Notes: generated from the sequence alone by a model not told the origin. Shown: positions 4,714 to 63,909, counted from the first letter of the stretch. The stretch is 64,000 nucleotides of DNA from Candidatus Tiddalikarchaeum anstoanum (GCA_902385255.1 CABMEV010000003.1:64813-128812); one strand, 5' to 3'. Translations and numbers: made by a program.

Positions 4714-5661
4714 TTATTCAGCTTTGAAAAACTGGGCGAGTAAACTCTCAAGCTGGACGTACTCGTCGCTTCCTTCTACAAGCCTAAACTCGTAATCGCC
4801 GACGACTCCTATTAATCGAATCTTGGTTTTTGCGCTAACCTTGTCAAGGTTCAAAACTTCCTGCTGTACTTGTTTTATGACATCGATTCCTGACAAGCCG
4901 TGCTTTATCATAGTGTCAAAAAGTAAATCTCGCGCTTTGATGAAGTCGCCGCTAACAGCTATCTCCAAACAATTCTTTATATCTTTCGGGTGGGCGAGAT
5001 TTGAAACTTCATAAACTAACTCCTTGCTAATAGTTGTTCCTATAACGCTTGCTGACTGCAATGTATTAATCGCTTTCCTAAGGTCTCCTCCGCTTACGTT
5101 GAACACTTCCTCCAAGACTGAATCATCAGCTTTCAATTTTTCACCAACTACTATTTTTTTCAGGAAGTCTATTACATCCTTCTTGTCTAATGGCTTAAAT
5201 TTGAATAATACGCACCTTGACTGGATTGGGTCTATAATCTTGCTTGAATAGTTGCAGTCAAGTATGAATCTGCAGCTGGAACTGTACTTCTCCATTGTAC
5301 GCCTTAATGCCTGCTGCGCCTCCCTGGTTAACGCGTCGCTCTCGCCGAGGAATATTATCTTGTAAGGCGCGGCGCCGAGAGCCTTACTTCTTGCGAAGTC
5401 CTTGACTTTATTCCTTATAGTATCTATTCCTCTTTCATCGCTCGCGTTTAATTCCAGAAAGTTTTGTTCAATATTAGAGCCGTATAAGTCATTGGCGAGC
5501 GCTAACGCGCATGTCGTCTTACCTGTACCTGCAGGGCCTGCAAATAATAAGTGGGGCATGCTTTCGCTTTTAGTGAAACCTATTAATCTTTTTATGATAC
5601 TTTGCTGGCCAACAACATCTTTTAATGATCTTGGCCTATATTTCTCAGTCCAGACATCCAT
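4714..5661 (-). CDS. rfcS: Replication factor C small subunit
   Basis: WTEKYRP..L.DVVGQ, P-loop FAGPAGTGKTT, NASDERGID and SRC-like (QSRC) motifs. Size of 315 aa indicates no intein. Confidence 0.85.
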   Translation of the reverse strand: MDVWTEKYRPRSLKDVVGQQSIIKRLIGFTKSESMPHLLFAGPAGTGKTTCALALANDLYGSNIEQNFLELNASDERGIDTIRNKVKDFARSKALGAAPYKIIFLGESDALTREAQQALRRTMEKYSSSCRFILDCNYSSKIIDPIQSRCVLFKFKPLDKKDVIDFLKKIVVGEKLKADDSVLEEVFNVSGGDLRKAINTLQSASVIGTTISKELVYEVSNLAHPKDIKNCLEIAVSGDFIKARDLLFDTMIKHGLSGIDVIKQVQQEVLNLDKVSAKTKIRLIGVVGDYEFRLVEGSDEYVQLESLLAQFFKAE

Positions 5662-37509: not shown

Positions 37510-38076
37510 ATGGGTTTGTCATTAGAAAAACTGGTTTATTTGCACGAAAAGGTCAATGAGTCACTGCTTAATAAAAAACCAGTTCTGGAGAGTTCTAATT
37601 TAAAAGGCAAAAAACTGATTTTATTAGGCTATACTGATTATCTTCCTTTTGATACTATAGAAAGACTTTCAAATTATGGAATCGGAAAGAATAATATATA
37701 CCTTGTAGAAGTTCCTCAGGAAGCTTTTGACAGCTTTTCTAAATTTAATTCTTATTCACAGGCGGATTTTCTTAGCGAATCACTTAAAAAAAGTACAGGT
37801 ACTCCGGAATCACCATGCTTAAACATTGCAAAACTGCTTTTTTTTGAACCTTATTTTATGGTTCCTGTCGCGGATGACTCATTTAAGAATGAGGTACGTG
37901 ACAGCGTAATAGACAGGTATGTACTGTCATGGATTGATGTGATTGGAAAAAACTTGGACCCCACCCTGTTTAATGACATAGTTTTCTTTGGAGGAAAACT
38001 TCATGTAAACTATTTGGAACTTAAAGCAAAACTTGGCAGGTTTAACAATCTAAACTACAAAATTAAGATATTCTAA
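37510..38076 (+). CDS. Hypothetical protein
   Basis: 188 aa, no motif recognised. Confidence 0.25.
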   Translation: MGLSLEKLVYLHEKVNESLLNKKPVLESSNLKGKKLILLGYTDYLPFDTIERLSNYGIGKNNIYLVEVPQEAFDSFSKFNSYSQADFLSESLKKSTGTPESPCLNIAKLLFFEPYFMVPVADDSFKNEVRDSVIDRYVLSWIDVIGKNLDPTLFNDIVFFGGKLHVNYLELKAKLGRFNNLNYKIKIF

Positions 38077-38080
38077 TAAC

Positions 38081-38887
38081 TTATTGAAATTCAGGTTCTT
38101 CATCTATTTGATATTTTTCTTCAACAGTGCTGTTGTAACTTTTTATGAGTTCGTTTTTTATTGCTTTAGGATTGGATGCGAATACTAATTGTTTATTGTT
38201 AACTGATAAATCAAACATTTGCTTTGATGCGTTTATTACATCAATATCAGTCAATAATCCGAATGTTTTGTCCCCGCCGTAAAAATTTTCATTTGATAGC
38301 CTCAATGCTTCTTTTTTGATGGCTAAGTACATATCTTCGAAAAAAACGTATTTTTTTTGTATAATATCCCTTTTAATCTTAAGAAATTCTGAAACTTTAA
38401 TATCTGGATTTTTATCTAATATAGTTAACACATTATTTGCCATTTTTTTTGTAATACTTGTATATATGTCTCTTTCGCTGAAATTTAAACGGGAGACATC
38501 GGAGCATAATGAATCTACAAACTCGTTTACTTTGGAATTTACTTCATGTTTGTGCGCTTCTTCTAACTCTTCTTTTATATATTCCCTGATTAACTTTAAT
38601 GTGTTCTTTTCATTTTCCTTGTAATTGAATTGTGAAGCGATTATTTTATTGGCGATGTAGTAACTGCAGTTTTTTAATTTGTTAATCTCATCGTTAGTAT
38701 AGTTTTGTTCGCCTCTTGATGTTGCAACTAGATAAGTTATATTTGCTAACAACTCAAAGTCTTTATTACTTTCAGCAGCCAGCTCTTTCAATGGCGTGAG
38801 TATACTATCTAATGAAACCATGCCCAATCTAGAAATGAATCCCTTTATAAGTATTTCTAATTTGTTGTCACTTTGTGGTGGTTGCAT
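38081..38887 (-). CDS. Hypothetical protein
   Basis: 268 aa, no motif recognised; start abuts the stop of the upstream ORF (38887). Confidence 0.25.
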   Translation of the reverse strand: MQPPQSDNKLEILIKGFISRLGMVSLDSILTPLKELAAESNKDFELLANITYLVATSRGEQNYTNDEINKLKNCSYYIANKIIASQFNYKENEKNTLKLIREYIKEELEEAHKHEVNSKVNEFVDSLCSDVSRLNFSERDIYTSITKKMANNVLTILDKNPDIKVSEFLKIKRDIIQKKYVFFEDMYLAIKKEALRLSNENFYGGDKTFGLLTDIDVINASKQMFDLSVNNKQLVFASNPKAIKNELIKSYNSTVEEKYQIDEEPEFQ

Positions 38888-39393
38888 TACTCATCGTCTG
38901 TTATTAAAGGCATTTCCTGAACCACGTTTAAGGCTTTTTTGAGCATTTCAGAGCTAACTACATTATATTTATTTTTGCATTTTTTAATTAAATCAGTATT
39001 AATATAAGGATATATAAAACTCAGTTTTGAAGAAATAGTGTCATTATTCACGCTAAGAACCCTTAACAAATAAGTGTATTCTTTATTGAAACTAAGCAGC
39101 CTCAATTTGTACTCATTATCCCTTTTATGATAGCAGAAACTAACATTAGTAAAGACATCTTTCATTAAATTCTTGTTCTTAATCGATGAGTTAATCTTTC
39201 TTTCAAGGGAGTTAACGCTGGAATCTAACTTTTCTATTATTTTTATAATATTATCCTCAACTGTAAATATGGCAACATTTAAATCAGTATTTAATAAGCC
39301 CAAACTTACATAACCCTCGCTTTTAACTAAGGGTTTTATTAGCAAAGCTGCATCATTGGCGCTTCCGTGTTCAAGAATTTCATACAAGTTCAT
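38887..39393 (-). CDS. Hypothetical protein
   Basis: 168 aa, no motif recognised. Confidence 0.25.
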   Translation of the reverse strand: MNLYEILEHGSANDAALLIKPLVKSEGYVSLGLLNTDLNVAIFTVEDNIIKIIEKLDSSVNSLERKINSSIKNKNLMKDVFTNVSFCYHKRDNEYKLRLLSFNKEYTYLLRVLSVNNDTISSKLSFIYPYINTDLIKKCKNKYNVVSSEMLKKALNVVQEMPLITDDE

Positions 39394-39527
39394 TAAAAAT
39401 CAAAAAAAATTAATGTTCTATCTCTTTTAAGGTTTAGTCTTAATCACTTAGTGGTAACCTTCATTTTTTTGTAACTACTCTTTAGTAAAACTATCTTTTT
39501 TAAATAAGAACTCTTGGACTAACAATT

Positions 39528-40115
39528 ATGGGTTTAGAGTCTGCTTTAAAAATTGAAATAATCGGATTCAACACGATGGCAGTTAAAGTGCCTGCTTTTT
39601 TTTATGATATCAAAGGAAGATTCACAGCGTTTTACGATATTCCTTTTGCAAAAAACAGTAATCCAAACATTGACTGCAGCAACATACCTTTTGGGGTTTA
39701 TTCATGCTTAAACACAAAATTGAGTTATAACCTTCCGAAGGAAGAATTCTGCGAGAAAATAAATAACATAATTGAGAAAAATACAGGCTTGAAGATAAAT
39801 GATATTGTACTCGAATCAGTGTACGTGTTGAAGGATAATTTCACAATATGCGTGCCAATAGGCTGCATAAATGAAACCCGTTTCGAAAGAAGTTTAGCTG
39901 TTACGAAAAACATAATAGACTCACTTGGGAGACGCAAGTTTATAACTGATTTAAAAATATTCCTAGCCGAGCCTCAGATGGGATTCGTAGAACACTTTTT
40001 GAAGATTAAATACAGCCATGCGGGTATTTCCATTGTTAATAAGTCGCAGTTTGAGACCAAACAACACATAATTGATAAGGATATCAGCAGTGCAGCAGAC
40101 TTTGGTATATTATGA
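39528..40115 (+). CDS. Hypothetical protein
   Basis: 195 aa, no motif recognised. Confidence 0.25.
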   Translation: MGLESALKIEIIGFNTMAVKVPAFFYDIKGRFTAFYDIPFAKNSNPNIDCSNIPFGVYSCLNTKLSYNLPKEEFCEKINNIIEKNTGLKINDIVLESVYVLKDNFTICVPIGCINETRFERSLAVTKNIIDSLGRRKFITDLKIFLAEPQMGFVEHFLKIKYSHAGISIVNKSQFETKQHIIDKDISSAADFGIL

Positions 40116-41054
40116 TTACAGCGGCTTTTGTAAAACTTCATGTACAGCTTCGTCAATAATGCTTGTTCTGTTCAAGCTTACTCCTTCAAACATGCTACTT
40201 CCCACCTTATCAAGATAAACAACTATTGAAATTTTAACCGTGTCATTCAATTCTTGTTCACTGATTTTTCCAAGTTTGTTTATCGCGTTTCTTATATCAA
40301 TTTTTAATTTATCAAAACTGACTTTAACGCTATTTTTTTTATTGTCTAGTAATTCCTTAGTGTTTAGTAAATTTTTAACCTTGCTTATAAATCCGATTTC
40401 CTCGCCAAATACTAGCATTAAGTCTCTCTTAGGCAGGTTAATTATAACTTCAACAGATTCATTTTTTAATCTTTTATACTCATTATTTTCTATAAACTCA
40501 GAAACTTTTTTATTGTCTATTGATGCTATATTCATTTCAGTTATTATGCCGTGAATTAACGTGTCTAATCTTACACCTATTTGAGTTTCACCTTTGCCTT
40601 CAGTGAATAAGGACATAGCATATTGATCTTCTAATAAGCGTATATAACTGTTTAATTCATCTTTTATTACATTAATATTCTCTATTGTTAATATGAACTT
40701 TCTTTCTTCATCAGTAATTTTCATGAATACCCTTTTTTCCCTGTCATTTAAGCCTTTAGGTTTTTCCTTTAATCTTTCAAAATCATCCATCTCTTTCTTG
40801 ACTTCTTTCTTGAGTTCAGCCTTTCTTTTAGGGTCGTGGAAGAATTCATGCTTTTCTTTTAAAAAAATAAATGCGTTAAAAGTTTTTTTATCTTGGTCAT
40901 TCATAGATAGAAATTCATTCTTTTCTTCATCATTTAAATCATTGAAGAAGTCTCTGTCTTCCTTAGTCATTTTTTCATAATCTTTTTTTGACTGTTCAGA
41001 TATTCTAAAAGACTTGTCAGCTATATTAGCCAGCACTTCGTCAGGGGTTACCAT
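40116..41054 (-). CDS. Highly charged coiled-coil-like hypothetical protein
   Basis: 312 aa, K/E/D-rich helical composition. Confidence 0.3.
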   Translation of the reverse strand: MVTPDEVLANIADKSFRISEQSKKDYEKMTKEDRDFFNDLNDEEKNEFLSMNDQDKKTFNAFIFLKEKHEFFHDPKRKAELKKEVKKEMDDFERLKEKPKGLNDREKRVFMKITDEERKFILTIENINVIKDELNSYIRLLEDQYAMSLFTEGKGETQIGVRLDTLIHGIITEMNIASIDNKKVSEFIENNEYKRLKNESVEVIINLPKRDLMLVFGEEIGFISKVKNLLNTKELLDNKKNSVKVSFDKLKIDIRNAINKLGKISEQELNDTVKISIVVYLDKVGSSMFEGVSLNRTSIIDEAVHEVLQKPL

Positions 41055-57184: not shown

Positions 57185-57538
57185 TCATTGGGAAAACCGT
57201 TTACCATCTTTTTTTAAAACCTCATTTTTTGCTAATTTTTTTATGCTTCCGCTTGTTTTAAGCGTATTGATTACTATTTGCTTTTCTCCGATACGCCTCA
57301 CGAGTGATAAGACAGCAATCATTGTATCTTTGTACTGGCTATCTACGCGGATAATGTTATCGTTTACGATTTGAATTCCGGCTTTGGAAAAACCATCTTC
57401 TCCTAAAAATCTGAGAGCCGTATCGTATATACCTTTCTTAACCTCATCTTTAAAAACTTTTTCATCACTTATCACTTCAAAATATATGTACCTCTTCTTA
57501 TGCCTTGATGAGGGAAGAATCATATTAATTATAACCAC
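57185..57538 (-). CDS. rnp2: RNase P protein subunit Pop5 (Rnp2)
   Basis: 117 aa; KRYIYFEVIS motif and position immediately upstream of psmA. Confidence 0.6.
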   Translation of the reverse strand: MVIINMILPSSRHKKRYIYFEVISDEKVFKDEVKKGIYDTALRFLGEDGFSKAGIQIVNDNIIRVDSQYKDTMIAVLSLVRRIGEKQIVINTLKTSGSIKKLAKNEVLKKDGKRFSQ

Positions 57539-57562
57539 TGGCTCTTTTAAAAATACTATTCC

Positions 57563-58567
57563 TTATTTATTAATTATTAAGGTCTTTTGCCTGCCTGATT
57601 CTATGTCTTTACTTAGTACTCGTTTTTCATACTCTTTAACTGATTTGTTTAAAAAAAGAACTATCCCTTCTTTAATTCTCCTTATATCTTCTGGATTAAT
57701 ATTTGCATGGGAGTCAAGGTCATCGTACCCCTCAACTGCTTCGCCCAAGGAGTTGAACTTAACGCCGTAAATAGCATGTAAACTATAACCATCTTCATCG
57801 GATAAAATCAGCATGTGCATATTTTTATTTCTTAAGTAATTCACTCTCTTTTTTTCATTTTTTAACTTGATAATATCACCCAAATCATAAAATTCGAATA
57901 CTTTTTTCTTTTTTGATAACTCTTTTATAGATACTTCTTCAGGAATGACTGCAAGGTCTGCTAAAAGGCATGTTGAATCATGATTTTGTTTTGTGTAATT
58001 TAATAATTCCTCGATTTTCAGAACTTCAGCTTTTTTGTCTTCACATAAATGCTTTATTTCTTTTTCAATATCCTTTACTCTCTGTTTCTCAAAATCTTCC
58101 AGTCTTATGGCGTCATCATCAGTGAATGTTTCTTTGCCAAAATATGTTCTCACAATTTTTTGCAAGTCTTCAACATCAGCTTTCTTAATCTCACTCTCCG
58201 CTGCCTTGACAATTACAGCGCCATTTTCACCTATTTTTACGGCGCTGATGCAGTTCCAGTTGCCGTCGTAAAATGAGTGTAATTTATTATTTATATTGTA
58301 CATGATGTTTTCTGTTATCTCATAAAAGTTTGAGCACGGGATTTTTTTGGATGTAAAGTATTCTTTTGGAATTTTTGCAGAGTTAAAGAACGCAGATGTA
58401 AAACACTCATATGCTTCTTTTTTTTCTTCGTTAACCTGCATTTCTTTGGGAAGCTTTTCTAATTCAAGCAGTTCTTTAGACTTTTTTATATATAATTGTT
58501 CCAGTTTCTCTACGGCTTCGTTTTTAGGTAAGCCTCTAATCGAGTTTCTAAACGCGTCAAAATTCAT
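57563..58567 (-). CDS. Hypothetical protein
   Basis: 334 aa, charged, no motif recognised. Confidence 0.25.
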   Translation of the reverse strand: MNFDAFRNSIRGLPKNEAVEKLEQLYIKKSKELLELEKLPKEMQVNEEKKEAYECFTSAFFNSAKIPKEYFTSKKIPCSNFYEITENIMYNINNKLHSFYDGNWNCISAVKIGENGAVIVKAAESEIKKADVEDLQKIVRTYFGKETFTDDDAIRLEDFEKQRVKDIEKEIKHLCEDKKAEVLKIEELLNYTKQNHDSTCLLADLAVIPEEVSIKELSKKKKVFEFYDLGDIIKLKNEKKRVNYLRNKNMHMLILSDEDGYSLHAIYGVKFNSLGEAVEGYDDLDSHANINPEDIRRIKEGIVLFLNKSVKEYEKRVLSKDIESGRQKTLIINK

Positions 58568-58700
58568 TAACCGATTGGGAACTTCTTTTTTTAATAAGGC
58601 TTTTTCAGAACTGCTAAGTAGTAATCTTTCCTTTAATGAAATTTTTAAGATACTTATTTATATAAGATTTTAATCTGATATTCTTGGTTTTAACCTAAAA

Positions 58701-59198
58701 ATGTCACCTACCTCGCTTGAAAAAATAATGGATTTTTACAACTCCAGAATGGACTGTTTAAACACGGCATTATCATGGTTTAAGGAGTACAATCCCGGTT
58801 TTATTGCAGTCTTTAAAAATGACAATAAAGCGCTTACCCTTGTCAGGTGCGAGGATATAAGTGAACAATTAAAAAAAGTATTATACAGGGCTAATAGGGT
58901 GTTAAAGAGCGAGCACCCTATTGATGCAGTTGACGTGGTTTTTAATTCTGAATCTAAAAAAGACAATTTATCAATTAATATGATTAGTTTCATATCTAGT
59001 ATTAATAATGGTTTTTACTACACTGATTATATAACATTCCCGCTTAATGAGCCTAGTATTGACTTAAGAATTATCAGGGAAAACAGCATAGCCTCAGGTT
59101 TGTACATTTACTTAACATCAAAGTGCTGGAATAACTCATTTAAAAGGGAAAAGGTAAAAGTGGACAGGTTCATTAGAAGCAGGCAGTTTACGTTTTAA
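58701..59198 (+). CDS. Hypothetical protein
   Basis: 165 aa, no motif recognised; preceded by TATTTATATAAG promoter-like element. Confidence 0.25.
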   Translation: MSPTSLEKIMDFYNSRMDCLNTALSWFKEYNPGFIAVFKNDNKALTLVRCEDISEQLKKVLYRANRVLKSEHPIDAVDVVFNSESKKDNLSINMISFISSINNGFYYTDYITFPLNEPSIDLRIIRENSIASGLYIYLTSKCWNNSFKREKVKVDRFIRSRQFTF

Positions 59199-59257
59199 AA
59201 AAAATTTAAATCAAACTATTTTTATATACAAAAAACTAATTATTTTAGTTAAAAGGA

Positions 59258-59341
59258 TGCGGGGTTGCCGGAGTGGTCAAACGGGCTAGCTTCAGGAGCT
59301 AGTGGCTTAGTGCCTGCGCGAGTTCGATACTCGTACCCCGC
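59258..59341 (+). tRNA. tRNA-Leu (anticodon CAG), class II with long variable arm; no encoded CCA
   Basis: Folded by hand: acceptor GCGGGGT/ACCCCGC, D-stem CCG/CGG, anticodon stem CTAGC/GCTAG with loop TTCAGGA, 15-nt variable arm, T-arm GCGAG-TTCGATA-CTCGT, discriminator A. Confidence 0.8.
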
Positions 59342-59390
59342 ATATTTCTTTAAGGTTTTTTGGTCCAGATTTCTTCTTAAAGAAAGATGG

Positions 59391-59411
59391 GTTTCGGTGC
59401 TCGTACCCTGC
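59391..59411 (+). repeat. Degenerate direct repeat of the tRNA-Leu 3' end (att-like)
   Basis: TTTCGGTGCTCGTACCCTGCA versus tRNA 3' end GTTCGATACTCGTACCCCGCA (17 of 21 identical), 50 nt downstream of the tRNA. Confidence 0.4.
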
Positions 59412-59477
59412 AATAACCTATTTAAACCACTAATTAGTAGTAACATTTTTAAATAGATTTTTTTCTAATATACTCAA

Positions 59478-60077
59478 ATGATTGACAGCATTAATATAAG
59501 GGGTTTGGATTTTAAGCTTTCAAATATTGAAGATTGCAATTCGATAAAGTCTCATGTTCAAACTAAGTCAGATCCTTTTTCAGTTGCGGTCCGCGACTTG
59601 CTTAGAGTTTATGAAACTGTTAATTCGTTAACAAATTATTATGAAGAATTAAATAAGTTAAACAACGATTTATACAGAATTAATGACAATGACTTGCTTC
59701 TTGGCAAAATACACGAATTTGGCAATGTATTAAGCAAAGATTTTGTTATGCTTGATAACATTTACAAAAATATAAATGAGTCAATACGTGACGTTTTAAA
59801 ATATAAATCCGTTGTCGCCCCAAATTATGACCAAACGGAACTTCTTTTTTCAAATATTGAAAGATTCACAAGCCACCAAATTAGAATACGCAATATGACG
59901 CCTTATTTATTGCAGCTTCTTCATTCACCTAATATTAATAATCCAAATGTGGCAAAGAATATGGAATTTTTTATGAAATCGTTTTCAACTGAATTAGATT
60001 TTTTCAAAAATGATTATGAACCAATGACAACGCAATTATCAAGGTGCATTAAAAACTTAGTACCAAAAATAACTTAA
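59478..60077 (+). CDS. Hypothetical protein
   Basis: 199 aa, no motif recognised. Confidence 0.25.
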   Translation: MIDSINIRGLDFKLSNIEDCNSIKSHVQTKSDPFSVAVRDLLRVYETVNSLTNYYEELNKLNNDLYRINDNDLLLGKIHEFGNVLSKDFVMLDNIYKNINESIRDVLKYKSVVAPNYDQTELLFSNIERFTSHQIRIRNMTPYLLQLLHSPNINNPNVAKNMEFFMKSFSTELDFFKNDYEPMTTQLSRCIKNLVPKIT

Positions 60078-60078
60078 A

Positions 60079-61353
60079 TTATTCGCCTTTGAAGTCGACT
60101 ATTTTGAATACTGGCCATTTGAGCTTTTTTCTGCCTTTTAATTCCGGAAGTTCAACTATGAATCCTACTTCAACAACTTTTCCGCCAAGTTTTTCTATCA
60201 AATTCCCTGCAGCTAAAGCTGTTCCTCCAGTAGCCAGTAAATCATCGAGCAATAATATTCTCTGGCCATGCTTGATAGCATCCTTATGTATCTCAATGGT
60301 AGCCTGTCCGTACTCTAAGTCATAAGATTCACTGACTGTTTCAGCAGGAAGTTTCCCCTTCTTACGGATTAATATGACACCTTTCCCTAGTTTTGAAGCG
60401 AGCGCCGAGGCGAGAACAAAACCCCTGCTTTCAATTCCAGCTATTAAGTCAATATCAATATTCTTATAATGTTCTTCAAGAATATCCAGCATCAATCTGA
60501 AACCTTCAGCATCCTTCAATAATGTTGTAATATCCCTAAACATTATTCCTTTCTTCGGCCAGTCTGGAACGGTGCGAATAAGACTCTTAATATATTCCTC
60601 TTCTTTTTTTTCATTTAATGATTCTACAACCTTGACCAATAATTTCTTCATCTTATCGGCATTCTCATTGAATATCTTCAGTATGTCATCCCAGCTTACT
60701 GGCATTTCATCAGTCTTCCAGCAGTCATAATCCGTAGACATCGCAATTCCTGCATATTCAATTTCTGCCTCCCTTGCAAGGATAGCTTCAGGAGCAATAC
60801 TCATGTTTATCACATCAGCACCCCATTGCCTGAACATTTTGCTCTCAGCTACGGTTGAAAACCTAGGCCCTTCAATGGTTACTACCGTGCCTTCTTTGTG
60901 AAAATTGTACTTTAAACGTTCGCACTCGTCTATGATTTTTTTCCTCAAGAATCCGGAAAAAGGATTTGCCAAGCTTACGTGTTTCGGGCCGTCCTTGAAG
61001 TCGTCAAAAAAAGAAAGTATCCTCCTTCTTGTAAAATCAATAAAGTCAGATAATACAACAAAATCTCCGCGCCCAATCTCCTCGCGCAGTGAACCAACTG
61101 CTGTTGTTGCTATTATATGAGTGCATCCTAGATTCTTTAATGCCTGTATGTTTGCCCTGTTATTTACAAAAGTGGGAGGGATTTGGTGTTTTTTTCCATG
61201 CCTGGCAAGTATGTAAACATCGGTATTGTTTAACTTGCCGTATGTTATTGTTGAGGAAGGTTTGCCATAAACAGTGTCTATATCCACTTCTTTGCAGTCT
61301 TTCAATATCTTCGGGTCATCCAATCCGCTGCCGCCAATAATGCCCACTTTCAT
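60079..61353 (-). CDS. Fusion protein: S-methyl-5'-thioadenosine phosphorylase (N-terminal) and adenine phosphoribosyltransferase (C-terminal)
   Basis: N-terminal half: KVGIIGGSGL...HGKKHQIPPTFVNNRANIQAL...ATTAVGSL...TIEGPRFSTVAES...GADVINMS (MTAP). C-terminal half: ESRGFVLASALA...VILIRKKGKLPAE...LLLDDLLATGGT (APRT PRPP-binding). Confidence 0.75.
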   Translation of the reverse strand: MKVGIIGGSGLDDPKILKDCKEVDIDTVYGKPSSTITYGKLNNTDVYILARHGKKHQIPPTFVNNRANIQALKNLGCTHIIATTAVGSLREEIGRGDFVVLSDFIDFTRRRILSFFDDFKDGPKHVSLANPFSGFLRKKIIDECERLKYNFHKEGTVVTIEGPRFSTVAESKMFRQWGADVINMSIAPEAILAREAEIEYAGIAMSTDYDCWKTDEMPVSWDDILKIFNENADKMKKLLVKVVESLNEKKEEEYIKSLIRTVPDWPKKGIMFRDITTLLKDAEGFRLMLDILEEHYKNIDIDLIAGIESRGFVLASALASKLGKGVILIRKKGKLPAETVSESYDLEYGQATIEIHKDAIKHGQRILLLDDLLATGGTALAAGNLIEKLGGKVVEVGFIVELPELKGRKKLKWPVFKIVDFKGE

Positions 61354-61449
61354 GAAAAATAATGAAATTATCACTTAATTAAAAAGCTTTTATTAAAAAT
61401 CGTATTAAAAAGATATTTAAACAATAATTTTTAGCTACTTTTACTGCAA

Positions 61450-62106
61450 ATGGTTTCAACCAATTTCAAATACCAAGTATTCGCCCAAAACGGGGCCGAG
61501 CGGTTATTAAAATGCGTAAAATTTGGAATGCAGAAATCAGTGGATATATATAATGAAGTGTTAAACAGGAATGAATCACTGGATTTTAAAGTGAGAGATT
61601 TTTCAGAAATAAATTATAACCCTGAAATTATGCATATAAAAAATCCGCATATGAAAATAAGCCTGATATACATAAAAATGCAGAAAGAATTGTCACAGTC
61701 AAACTCTTATCTTATATTCTTGATTAACAGATTCAGGGACGAATATTTGAACCATGAATACTTAGGCCATACGAATGTTTTTCCTGCGAATGAGGGGCAG
61801 AAGCAGAATGTTCTAATAACGCTGAACTTGTTCATAAACGAGTCATTGAAGAATAAGGATTTCAATTTCATATCTACATTTTTAGGATTCCATGAACAAA
61901 TGCATGCAATAACTGATGCAGCAGAGAGAAACGGCATGGAACACTGCACTAACCTTGGATGCGGCCTGGCAGACATGTCCACTCCAGGCTGGGATGCAGA
62001 TACGCATATTAAGAATATGTCTTATACGTTTTCAAGAGAGAAGCGTTTCGAGATTTGCAGCTACTGCCGAGGCCTTGTAGAGCAGAGTTTTAACCTAATG
62101 CAATAG
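61450..62106 (+). CDS. Putative HExxH zinc metallopeptidase-like protein with C-terminal Cys cluster (SprT/Wss1-like candidate)
   Basis: FHEQMHAITD (HExxH) followed by CTNLGCG ... CSYCRG. Family assignment by motif only. Confidence 0.35.
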   Translation: MVSTNFKYQVFAQNGAERLLKCVKFGMQKSVDIYNEVLNRNESLDFKVRDFSEINYNPEIMHIKNPHMKISLIYIKMQKELSQSNSYLIFLINRFRDEYLNHEYLGHTNVFPANEGQKQNVLITLNLFINESLKNKDFNFISTFLGFHEQMHAITDAAERNGMEHCTNLGCGLADMSTPGWDADTHIKNMSYTFSREKRFEICSYCRGLVEQSFNLMQ

Positions 62107-62147
62107 CGCAACATTTTTAATAATAATCATTTAGCAACTATATTATA

Positions 62148-63146
62148 ATGCTCACTAAGTTTGGGAATAAAATAAAGCAGTTCGCGTACGGAATCAGAAT
62201 AATGTTCAATAATGAAGAATATCACAGGGTTTTAAACCACGACGAATTCCTGAAGAGAAAAACAGAGAAGTATCGGCAAAAACTTCAAATGTATAAGAAG
62301 GAATCTTTCAACCGCGGAAAGTATGAAGGCCAGGATGAGTATAAAAGGTATATTAATGATAATTTTTCCAATCTTGCAGAGAATTTGGGAATAACAATTC
62401 TTCCCGGCGACTGCTGTCTCGAAGATGTATTGTTAAAAATAAAAGAGGCTGAATCTTTTAAAAAATTACTCGGCAAAAAAGAAACAAGATATGATGCATT
62501 AACGGCGTTATGCATGAAGAAGATGAATTCAACATTCACTCCGTACATCAACCAGCTTACGAGTTATGTAAAAGAGTACTCCCCTGAAGTTGTTGAAAAA
62601 GTCGAGAAAGGTGTATTAAACGGATTAATAAATTACTTATCGCTCTGCTGCAACTTGGTTAACTTTGATGATTATGCATTATTAGACACTAGTTATATAA
62701 GTAAATTCAGGGAGACTAACAGTTCCAAGGCATTAAGGTGTGATAATCTGCATCCTAACATTAAGGGGATGATACTTCCAGTAGCTGCAATAAAGGAATA
62801 CTACGCGATGATTAATGAATACCGCGACATCAGAATTGCAAAAAGAGTCAAAAGCGACATCATACAATTATTATCAAACCCGAATCTTATGATTATCCCT
62901 ATGTCTAAATCTTTAGAGTACTTGGACAAGGAGACTGTTGACATATTCTGCGATGAGAATAACGGGCATAAGAAGTATCACAAAGCTGACTTACAGATAA
63001 TAAGCTTTTATAAAAAATTCGGCCACCAATTCTCGAACTTATACCTGCTTGCCATAGACCAGGATTTATGGGCTGAGATGGAAAAATTATCCAAATCCAG
63101 GAATAACCTATCTATTATATCAAACAAGCTTACTAAAATTTTATAA
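62148..63146 (+). CDS. Hypothetical protein
   Basis: 332 aa, no motif recognised. Confidence 0.25.
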   Translation: MLTKFGNKIKQFAYGIRIMFNNEEYHRVLNHDEFLKRKTEKYRQKLQMYKKESFNRGKYEGQDEYKRYINDNFSNLAENLGITILPGDCCLEDVLLKIKEAESFKKLLGKKETRYDALTALCMKKMNSTFTPYINQLTSYVKEYSPEVVEKVEKGVLNGLINYLSLCCNLVNFDDYALLDTSYISKFRETNSSKALRCDNLHPNIKGMILPVAAIKEYYAMINEYRDIRIAKRVKSDIIQLLSNPNLMIIPMSKSLEYLDKETVDIFCDENNGHKKYHKADLQIISFYKKFGHQFSNLYLLAIDQDLWAEMEKLSKSRNNLSIISNKLTKIL

Positions 63147-63169
63147 AAAACCGGCTTGTTAAAAATATT

Positions 63170-63385
63170 ATGCCAGTTGCAAAAATAATTGAGTTAATAG
63201 GCACGTCTAATCAGAGTTTTGAAGATGCAGTACAGCAAGTAATAAAGAGGGCAACAAAGACTTTAAGGCATGTCTCAGGATTGCACATAGTAAGCCAGAA
63301 GATTAATCTTAGTGAAGGAAAAATAGTGGAATACAGGGTTAATGTTAAAGTTGCTTTCGGAATAGATGACCTGAAAAAGAAATAA
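63170..63385 (+). CDS. Dodecin-family small flavin-binding protein
   Basis: 71 aa; IGTSNQSFEDAVQQ...GKIVEYRVNVKVAF matches dodecin pattern as recalled. Confidence 0.55.
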   Translation: MPVAKIIELIGTSNQSFEDAVQQVIKRATKTLRHVSGLHIVSQKINLSEGKIVEYRVNVKVAFGIDDLKKK

Positions 63386-63387
63386 AA

Positions 63388-63909
63388 TTACTTGAATAAT
63401 TTTTCAAAGCTAACGCGAACTCTTTCAAAATTATCTATACCTAAATAGTTAGCCCATGCTTTAATCTCGGAACCGTTAAACAATTCGTATTTATCCTTGG
63501 CGCAGCTTGCAAAAAGCACAGGCAAGTCATACTTTACTGCGCGCTTCATATTCTCAGCCATCCTTCTTATAATCCTTCCTCTCTTTGAATGCTCGCTTGT
63601 TAACAACAAGTTAAGATTAAACACCAAGGCTATCTTCTTCTCGAACATGAAATTGGCAGCACTATCATCAATTCCCCCCTTGACGTGCTGCAGGCTGTCT
63701 TTAGGGTATAATAGTTCAGCATTGATTACGCCTGAAGGCAAACCCATTTTTAAGCCCTTATCTAATACGTCGTCAGTCTTCGGGCTTAAGAATACTATGT
63801 CATTTTTCTGGAATTTTAAATCATCAGCTATTTTAGCACTTCCAGTATGGATGTGAAACTGTCTCTTCTCATCAGGGCTTATATTGTATAATACGCACGC
63901 GTCAAACAT
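63388..63909 (-). CDS. rnp3: RNase P protein subunit Rpp30 (Rnp3)
   Basis: Aligns by eye with Pyrococcus Rpp30 as recalled (D...A..M..KK.AL.F.L..LL.S ... KY ... F.S.A). At 173 aa it is shorter than typical. Confidence 0.55.
   Translation of the reverse strand: MFDACVLYNISPDEKRQFHIHTGSAKIADDLKFQKNDIVFLSPKTDDVLDKGLKMGLPSGVINAELLYPKDSLQHVKGGIDDSAANFMFEKKIALVFNLNLLLTSEHSKRGRIIRRMAENMKRAVKYDLPVLFASCAKDKYELFNGSEIKAWANYLGIDNFERVRVSFEKLFK

Follow-up and report, generated by a model that had tools for sequence, protein, structure and literature searches.

What displaced one RNase P subunit gene from another in Candidatus Tiddalikarchaeum anstoanum? The question is raised by a 64,000-nucleotide (nt) stretch of this genome (GCA_902385255.1 CABMEV010000003.1:64813-128812), hereafter the window, in which the genes for the RNase P subunits Rpp30 and Pop5 are separated by a block of ~5.86 kb that holds seven protein genes, a tRNA-Leu(CAG) and a 17/20 copy of the 3' end of that tRNA. 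An earlier note, made from the sequence alone, had taken the block for an insertion that splits a conserved RNase P-proteasome-exosome neighborhood and had proposed that it integrated at the tRNA gene. Comparison with related loci supports the first of these proposals and does not support the second. What fills the gap is no single mobile element integrated at a tRNA but probably a mosaic, in which relocated native genes and lineage-specific orphan genes have accumulated at an operon boundary that tolerates insertions, with the tRNA 3' copy as an independent small scar. The host is represented by a 1.16-Mb metagenome-assembled genome (MAG) of 36.5% GC in 56 contigs, assigned to the order CG07-land of the class Nanoarchaeia, and the Rpp30-Pop5 locus is not discussed in the description of that genome (PMC8561730).

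One variable junction in a collinear region

Ten related loci were gathered by a psmA scan of genome and metagenome collections and by psmA homologues, and those with a psmA 64–74% identical to that of the window form the core comparison clade. Rpp30-Pop5 spacing was compared in seven of these relatives (L001–L003, L005–L007 and L011), making eight loci with the window. The clade is collinear over ~15 kb, from TFE through an M50 peptidase, AspRS, a transglutaminase, a methyltransferase, Rpp30 and Pop5 to Memo. At most of the other junctions the genes overlap or stand only a few nt apart, which suggests coupling, and a table of inter-gene distances shows the remaining TFE-Memo junctions to be constant within ~45 nt, most of them within ~15 nt. 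The one further exception is the methyltransferase-Rpp30 junction of L011, at 256 nt versus 29–35 nt elsewhere. The distance from Rpp30 to Pop5 is 66 nt in L001, L002 and L003, 814 nt in L005, 982 nt in L006, 962 nt in L007, 1344 nt in L011 and 5852 nt in the window; Rpp30 is not directly upstream of Pop5 in the window, being 5.86 kb away as against 66 nt in L001–L003. In the relatives examined, no homologue of a block gene was found up to 10 kb from the junction, and no tRNA lies between or beside Rpp30 and Pop5, or within 10 kb of them, in L001–L007 or L011–L013. Because the relatives have a short spacing (66 nt to 1.3 kb) without the block genes, the window carries an insertion relative to the common arrangement of the clade, as the earlier note had supposed. 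The Methanothermobacter numbering that it cited is also borne out: Mth687p is Pop5 and Mth688p is Rpp30, with SBDS encoded by mth685 in the exosome superoperon.

The Rpp30-Pop5 junction alone combines collinear flanks with lineage-specific, unrelated content. In an all-against-all BLAST comparison, the gap-filling open reading frames (ORFs) of L005, of L006 and L011, of L007 and of the window were unrelated to each other. The close relatives L006 and L011 have common fillers at 74% and 61% identity, indicating that fillers are inherited within sublineages. In L004, the closest relative (psmA 74% identical; 1.7-kb contig), the gene upstream of Pop5 ends ...FLKQTAEIKKID, unlike both the Rpp30 C-terminus and h334, the left-most gene of the block. 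Distant relatives are rearranged: TFE abuts Pop5 in L012, and L013 has no recognizable Rpp30 upstream of Pop5, the 168-aa ORF at that position having been considered and rejected.

Two observations concern the fillers themselves. In L007 (8738–9649), ORFs of 137 and 155 aa are weak tandem paralogues (E 0.004), and L011 carries two copies (4834–5660) related to a 150-aa ORF of L006. The weak tandem paralogues hint at local duplication as one route of gap growth.

Pop5 is the first gene of a unit whose members overlap or are separated by tiny gaps. The minus-strand order in the window is Memo, S2, RpoK, Rrp42, a 457-aa RNase E/G-like protein, Rrp41, Rrp4, SBDS, psmA and Pop5. The earlier note had described the run from Pop5 to Rrp42 as intact, which is right for gene order and direction (Pop5, psmA, SBDS, Rrp4, Rrp41 and Rrp42 are all Pfam-identified and co-directional) but overlooks the RNase E/G-like gene between Rrp41 and Rrp42, an addition that is conserved in relatives. 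The longest ORF of Pop5 extends to a GTG at 57538; in an alignment with five orthologues, the conserved MILPSSR begins at the ATG at 57523. The ATG is probably the true start, which sets the Rpp30-Pop5 gap at 5,864 nt. The 30–60 nt preceding this ATG are AT-rich in every locus, and most loci have a TTTAAA(A/T)A-like box ~20–34 nt before it, L011 being an exception with an AT-rich tract but no distinct box at this spacing. The box of the window, TTTTTAAAA, is located between the h334 stop codon and Pop5. It may be a conserved promoter for a near-leaderless Pop5-psmA superoperon transcript, kept on the Pop5 side of the insertion.

These features would make the Rpp30-Pop5 junction the boundary of two transcription units, one of methyltransferase and Rpp30 and the other running from Pop5 through psmA, SBDS, the exosome genes and S2 to Memo. 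Since Pop5 appears to have its own upstream TATA-like promoter, the junction could take insertions without breaking either unit. Insertions would sit upstream of the Pop5 promoter, and the junction would be the one place in the region that tolerates extra DNA. The gap probably grew to 5.86 kb by one or several chromosomal rearrangements; these would have imported the native genes for the MTAP-APRT fusion, tRNA-Leu and dodecin, and lineage-restricted or orphan genes (h334, h165, h199, an HExxH protein and a PIN-domain protein) would have joined in.

A native gene and native codon usage

The earlier note had counted six protein genes in the block, three of them hypothetical. The MTAP-APRT fusion, the dodecin, the HExxH protein and the mixed orientation that it described are all present, but there are seven protein genes, and four of their products, of 334, 165, 199 and 332 aa, are without a family. 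No Rfam family besides the tRNA occurs in the block.

One line of evidence on where the block genes came from is given by the MTAP-APRT fusion. Among the best 120 of 8000 scored clusters, its homologues are 62–75% identical with both domains present, a level of conservation comparable to that of psmA (64–74%). In the genome that contains both L006 and L008, a single contig carries the fusion gene and Rpp30-Pop5, ~315 kb apart, and the neighbors of the fusion gene are different in each of the three genomes in which they were viewed (L008, L009 and L010). MTAP-APRT is a core, vertically conserved gene of Nanoarchaeia that changes place as a chromosomal gene, and in relatives it is located elsewhere than at this junction. 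For tRNA-Leu and dodecin the same history of native relocation is probable.

Codon usage gives the same picture. The block genes have z scores of −0.64 to +0.81, within one standard deviation (SD) of the window genes, and a wrong-frame ORF scored −3.63, from which it follows that the measure does discriminate. Base composition is more mixed. Compared with stretches of equal length, the block as a whole ranks in the lowest 6% by GC and in the top 10% by tetranucleotide distance. Its right 3.3 kb are of ordinary composition, and the shift is confined to the left 2.5 kb, from h334 to h199, including the tRNA and the scar. Of the compositional anomaly that could mark 57.5–63.4 kb as foreign, the codon-usage part was thus absent and the AT-rich, tetranucleotide part was found in the left segment only. 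With GC normalization the tetranucleotide signature of this segment is at the 16th percentile.

A second AT-rich stretch, equal in compositional deviation to the left of the block, occupies 37510–41054 of the window next to L7Ae (GC ~0.30–0.35) and consists of five consecutive genes without a Pfam family; it may be another lineage-specific orphan-gene cluster. Given an equally deviant orphan stretch at 37.5–41 kb, low GC appears to track orphan genes genome-wide and is no mark of foreignness for the block.

The tRNA gene and the copy of its 3' end

The pairing of tRNA-Leu with a degenerate copy of its 3' end, on which the earlier note had built its proposal, is real. The tRNA was detected by both ARAGORN and Rfam. 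The source segment runs from the T-loop to the discriminator base (59323–59342; the att core is TTCGATACTCGTACCCCGCA), and the copy, which has three mismatches, is found 50 nt downstream of the tRNA. A second match to the tRNA 3' segment arose in 0/100 dinucleotide-preserving shuffles of the window. By local alignment, the similarity ends at 20 nt, and nothing else in the window is similar to this tRNA.

Integration of the block at this tRNA is not supported. The tRNA is internal and forms neither boundary of the block, the edges lying 1.7 kb away on the Pop5 side and 4.0 kb away on the Rpp30 side; at the uninterrupted site of the relatives (L001–L007, L011–L013) there is no target tRNA. No copy of the tRNA 3' core occurs at the far block boundary, and the sole copy, being 50 nt from the tRNA, cannot bound an element of 5.8 kb. 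No repeats above chance level were found at the block edges, and the candidate flanking repeats around the inserts of the window and its relatives proved to be merely 9-mers in AT-rich DNA. Searches of the seven block proteins against Pfam (to E ≤ 10), PHROGs, NCBIfam and PADLOC detected no integrase, recombinase or other mobile-element family, in accordance with the remark of the earlier note that no integrase is present; a defence island was likewise set aside for want of a PADLOC match. The cargo includes a core gene and its codon usage is native.

Similarity of the block proteins to viruses and plasmids, which the earlier note had regarded as a way to recognize an element, was not found, in libraries that hold few DPANN elements. 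There were no tblastn matches to phage records for the five uncharacterized proteins or to plasmid records for h334, h199 and h332, and IMG/VR scans with four of the orphan proteins, the h332 family and the tRNA att core returned nothing, an absence that is weak negative evidence because the phage and plasmid libraries contain almost no DPANN elements. A structural search among viral proteins also returned nothing.

The 20-nt copy is a separate small local scar and not a boundary of the block. It could be a relic of an old integration that afterwards lost its interior by deletion, or the product of tRNA gene replacement or of a short duplication. Other identities were considered for it. A pseudo-tRNA or split-tRNA half was rejected, since only 20 nt are similar and the 5' strand of the T-stem is missing. 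A simple 70-nt tandem duplication is not evident, the flanks of the two copies being dissimilar. The 50 nt that separate tRNA and copy contain a 10-bp hairpin (TTTCTTTAAG/CTTAAAGAAA), which was examined as a structured trailer and is no more stable than shuffled sequences (z −0.91).

Alternative explanations

Several points weigh against a mosaic of native and orphan genes. The left 2.5 kb are AT-rich (GC 0.318 versus 0.374), have a raw tetranucleotide distance ~3 SD above the window mean and contain orphan genes only, leaving room for a degraded foreign element. The assignment of the Pop5 promoter comes from reading the sequence, and the window stops 91 nt past Rpp30. Among the orphan proteins, h332 was the subject of an exhaustive homologue search and the others of shallow ones, and the scarcity of DPANN elements in the phage and plasmid libraries counts here as well. 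The genome being a MAG, a misjoin between co-occurring strains is possible.

The first of these points leads to the main rival explanation, in which the AT-rich, orphan-only left segment (57563–60077) is what remains of a virus or plasmid that had integrated at tRNA-Leu(CAG). The copy would be the surviving attachment (att) site, the integrase and most of the element would have been lost, and the tRNA and remnant would have been carried into the gap together. The copy of the tRNA 3' end is real and covers exactly the stretch from T-loop to discriminator base, a sublocation that many tRNA-targeting integrases use. Within the block the segment is lowest in GC, its raw tetranucleotide distance ranks among the top three of the window, and h334, h165 and h199 are all singletons without a family. 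The geometry is unfavorable to it, however. The tRNA and the copy are 50 nt apart, too close for any of the three ORFs to lie between the att sites, and h334 and h165 are upstream of the tRNA, the wrong side for integration at a 3' end. No integrase fragment was detected even at E ≤ 10, codon usage is native and the GC-normalized signature is unremarkable, neither the att core nor relatives of the segment's proteins were found on any viral contig searched, and the five-gene family-less cluster at 37.5–41 kb is equally AT-rich without any tRNA. We consider this explanation unlikely.

A broader and quite improbable proposal would join two ideas: that the spacer is a recurrent site of gene capture or gene birth in CG07-land/Nanoarchaeia, filled independently in each lineage without an integrase or target duplication, and that the tRNA-Leu scar is all that is left of a DPANN integrative element of an unknown kind.

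It is also very doubtful that the junction is a site-specific hotspot, that is, a spacer targeted by an unrecognized integrase-free mode of insertion or gene capture, or a cradle of de novo genes arising from AT-rich promoter-proximal DNA. The eight loci show five fill states here, nearly every other junction being invariant, fillers of different lineages bear no relation to each other, and the tandem paralogue pair of L007 and the extra s150-like copy of L011 are in keeping with such a site. Relaxed selection at an operon boundary nevertheless accounts for the pattern without a dedicated mechanism. The inserts are not flanked by direct repeats or target-site duplications, no conserved border motif was found beyond the promoter-like box, and in distant relatives such as L012 the junction is simply rearranged.

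Least probable of all is that the block is ancestral and was lost by the relatives, or that it is an assembly chimera of two loci: the sample is of just eight loci and the genome a metagenome-assembled draft in 56 contigs, but Rpp30-Pop5 adjacency extends far outside the clade (Mth688p and Mth687p are consecutive locus tags), loss would require several independent precise deletions and the fillers of other lineages are unrelated to the block, and, as to a chimera, packing at both joins is tight and typical (39-nt and 2-nt gaps), the composition and closest homologues of the block are Nanoarchaeial and the block is on a 208-kb contig.

Features and proteins of the locus

Table 1. Features at and around the Rpp30-Pop5 junction, with positions counted from the first nucleotide of the window (aa, amino acids).
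Feature	Position	Strand	Evidence and remarks
RNase E/G-like protein, 457 aa	52884–54257	−	Pfam RNase_E_G
Pop5 (RNase P subunit)	57185–57523	−	Pfam PF01900 Rpp14/Pop5, E 1.8e-12
TATA-like box TTTTTAAAA	57545–57553	−	Aligned upstream sequences, read directly; 22–30 nt before Pop5 ATG
h334, 334 aa, left-most block gene	57563–58567	−	ORF; codon usage coding-like, z −0.25
h165, 165 aa	58701–59198	+	ORF; singleton
TATA-like TTTTATATA ahead of tRNA-Leu(CAG)	59220–59228		Sequence
tRNA-Leu(CAG)	59258–59343	+	ARAGORN; Rfam RF00005, 51 bits
Degenerate direct copy of tRNA-Leu 3' end, 17/20	59393–59412	+	Window self-comparison
h199, 199 aa, lowest-GC block gene (0.295)	59478–60077	+	ORF; singleton
MTAP-APRT fusion (methylthioadenosine phosphorylase + adenine phosphoribosyltransferase)	60079–61374	−	Pfam PF01048 + PF00156; NCBIfam MTAP + apt
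218-aa protein with HEQMH motif	61450–62106	+	Sequence
h332, 332 aa: helical N-terminal region and C-terminal PIN-like nuclease domain	62148–63146	+	HMMER, AlphaFold2, Foldseek
Dodecin (small flavin-binding protein)	63170–63385	+	Pfam PF07311, E 5e-24
Rpp30 (RNase P component 3), short 173-aa form	63388–63909	−	Family models, NCBI annotation, orthologues

Rpp30 matches its family models weakly, with 22.5 bits against a Pfam cutoff of 35 and E 1.3e-11 for the NCBIfam model "RNase P component 3", which is below the cutoff of that model. Its identity is backed by the NCBI annotation "Ribonuclease P protein component 3" and by orthologues that are 54–62% identical and located near Pop5 in L001–L003, L005–L007 and L011. 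The Rpp30 of this clade is short (172–181 aa in the window, L001, L005–L007 and L011) and aligns with the Pfam and NCBIfam models over their C-terminal part only, at scores below the curated cutoffs, with ~70 divergent N-terminal residues. In the window it is convergent with dodecin, at a gap of 2 nt.

The RNase E/G-like gene occupies the same position between Rrp41 and Rrp42 in L001, L005–L007, L011 and L012 and is absent in L013. Its homologues also show a weak DUF402 match, resembling FAU-1. The placement of the gene suggests a clade-specific functional link of this putative endonuclease with the exosome. The MTAP-APRT fusion joins two consecutive salvage steps in one polypeptide, and it is widespread and well conserved in MAGs of Nanoarchaeia, Pacearchaeota and Woesearchaeota.

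Three of the block proteins are singletons. h334 (cluster VVB74650.1), whose gene ends 39 nt from the Pop5 ATG, has no family in Pfam, PHROG, NCBIfam or PADLOC and no match among phages, plasmids or viral contigs. h165 has no family in the same four collections and no phage or viral match. For h199, no family was found in Pfam, NCBIfam or PADLOC and no match among phages, plasmids or viruses; a single PHROG match is sub-threshold (E 0.007). The 218-aa protein has its HEQMH motif followed by C-x4-C ... C-x2-C, no family in Pfam and no sequence match in the PDB, and its AlphaFold2 (AF2) single-sequence model was unusable, with a predicted local distance difference test (pLDDT) score of 38. It is a possible candidate zinc metalloprotease. 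The spacing of HEQMH and cysteines resembles that of archaemetzincin-type zinc proteases, although such an assignment is a guess.

More can be said of h332. HMMER found 5 homologues among 1.84 billion representatives, which makes a rare family of six clusters, and the three clusters with a source name are from Nanoarchaeia/Nanoarchaeota MAGs. Four acidic residues (D180, E217, D281 and D304) are invariant in the family and are placed by the predicted structure on a Rossmann-like alpha/beta/alpha fold, as in a PIN domain. The AF2 model has a pLDDT of 82–92 across most of residues 130–325, the N-terminal helical region of ~165 aa being modelled poorly. The top Foldseek matches of the domain in the PDB are VapC20, AF0591, Utp24 and Nmd4 (probability ~1.0, E 0.008–0.05, TM score ~0.6), and the Pfam families PIN_12 and PIN_8 match the family only at E 0.03–0.06, in one member each. 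No antitoxin-like gene is evident alongside h332.

Significance and comparison with known systems

The locus is a corrective case, in which a tRNA, a repeat of the tRNA end and a break in synteny mimic a genomic island, and relatives reveal a mosaic with native genes at a probable operon boundary. This is the ordinary plasticity of a reduced, fast-shuffling genome, and the findings leave the current understanding of these systems unchanged. They offer a compact and clear case of where gene order can change, and orphan genes reside, in reduced DPANN genomes, document the uncoupling of the RNase P subunit genes in Ca. Tiddalikarchaeum anstoanum, and identify a rare Nanoarchaeia-restricted PIN-domain family and a conserved fused enzyme of methylthioadenosine/adenine salvage.

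With tRNA-targeted integrative elements the locus shares an intact tRNA followed on the same strand by a partial 3' copy, from T-loop to discriminator base, which is the type of scar such elements leave. It differs from them in that no integrase is present, the repeats are 50 nt apart instead of bracketing the block, the tRNA is internal and missing at the relatives' empty site, core genes are in the cargo and no similarity to viruses or plasmids was found in libraries that hold few DPANN elements. A likeness is also found in the plasticity zones between conserved operons, where rigid, collinear flanks enclose one junction whose content is unrelated from lineage to lineage, is made up mostly of orphan genes and lacks mobility genes. 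Here, however, the scale is very small (0–7 genes in a genome of ~1.2 Mb), and the fill includes relocated housekeeping genes and a tRNA in place of accessory or defence cargo (no PADLOC match).

The archaeal exosome superoperon of Koonin et al. (2001) reportedly brings together RNase P subunits, proteasome alpha, SBDS, Rrp4, Rrp41 and Rrp42. The window keeps this organization, with Pop5-psmA-SBDS-Rrp4-Rrp41-...-Rrp42-RpoK-S2 in one direction with tiny gaps or overlaps, and L001–L003 retain Rpp30 directly upstream, as with Mth688p/Mth687p of Methanothermobacter. The window departs from it in that Rpp30 is displaced by 5.86 kb and convergent on dodecin, and this clade as a whole in having the RNase E/G-like gene between Rrp41 and Rrp42.

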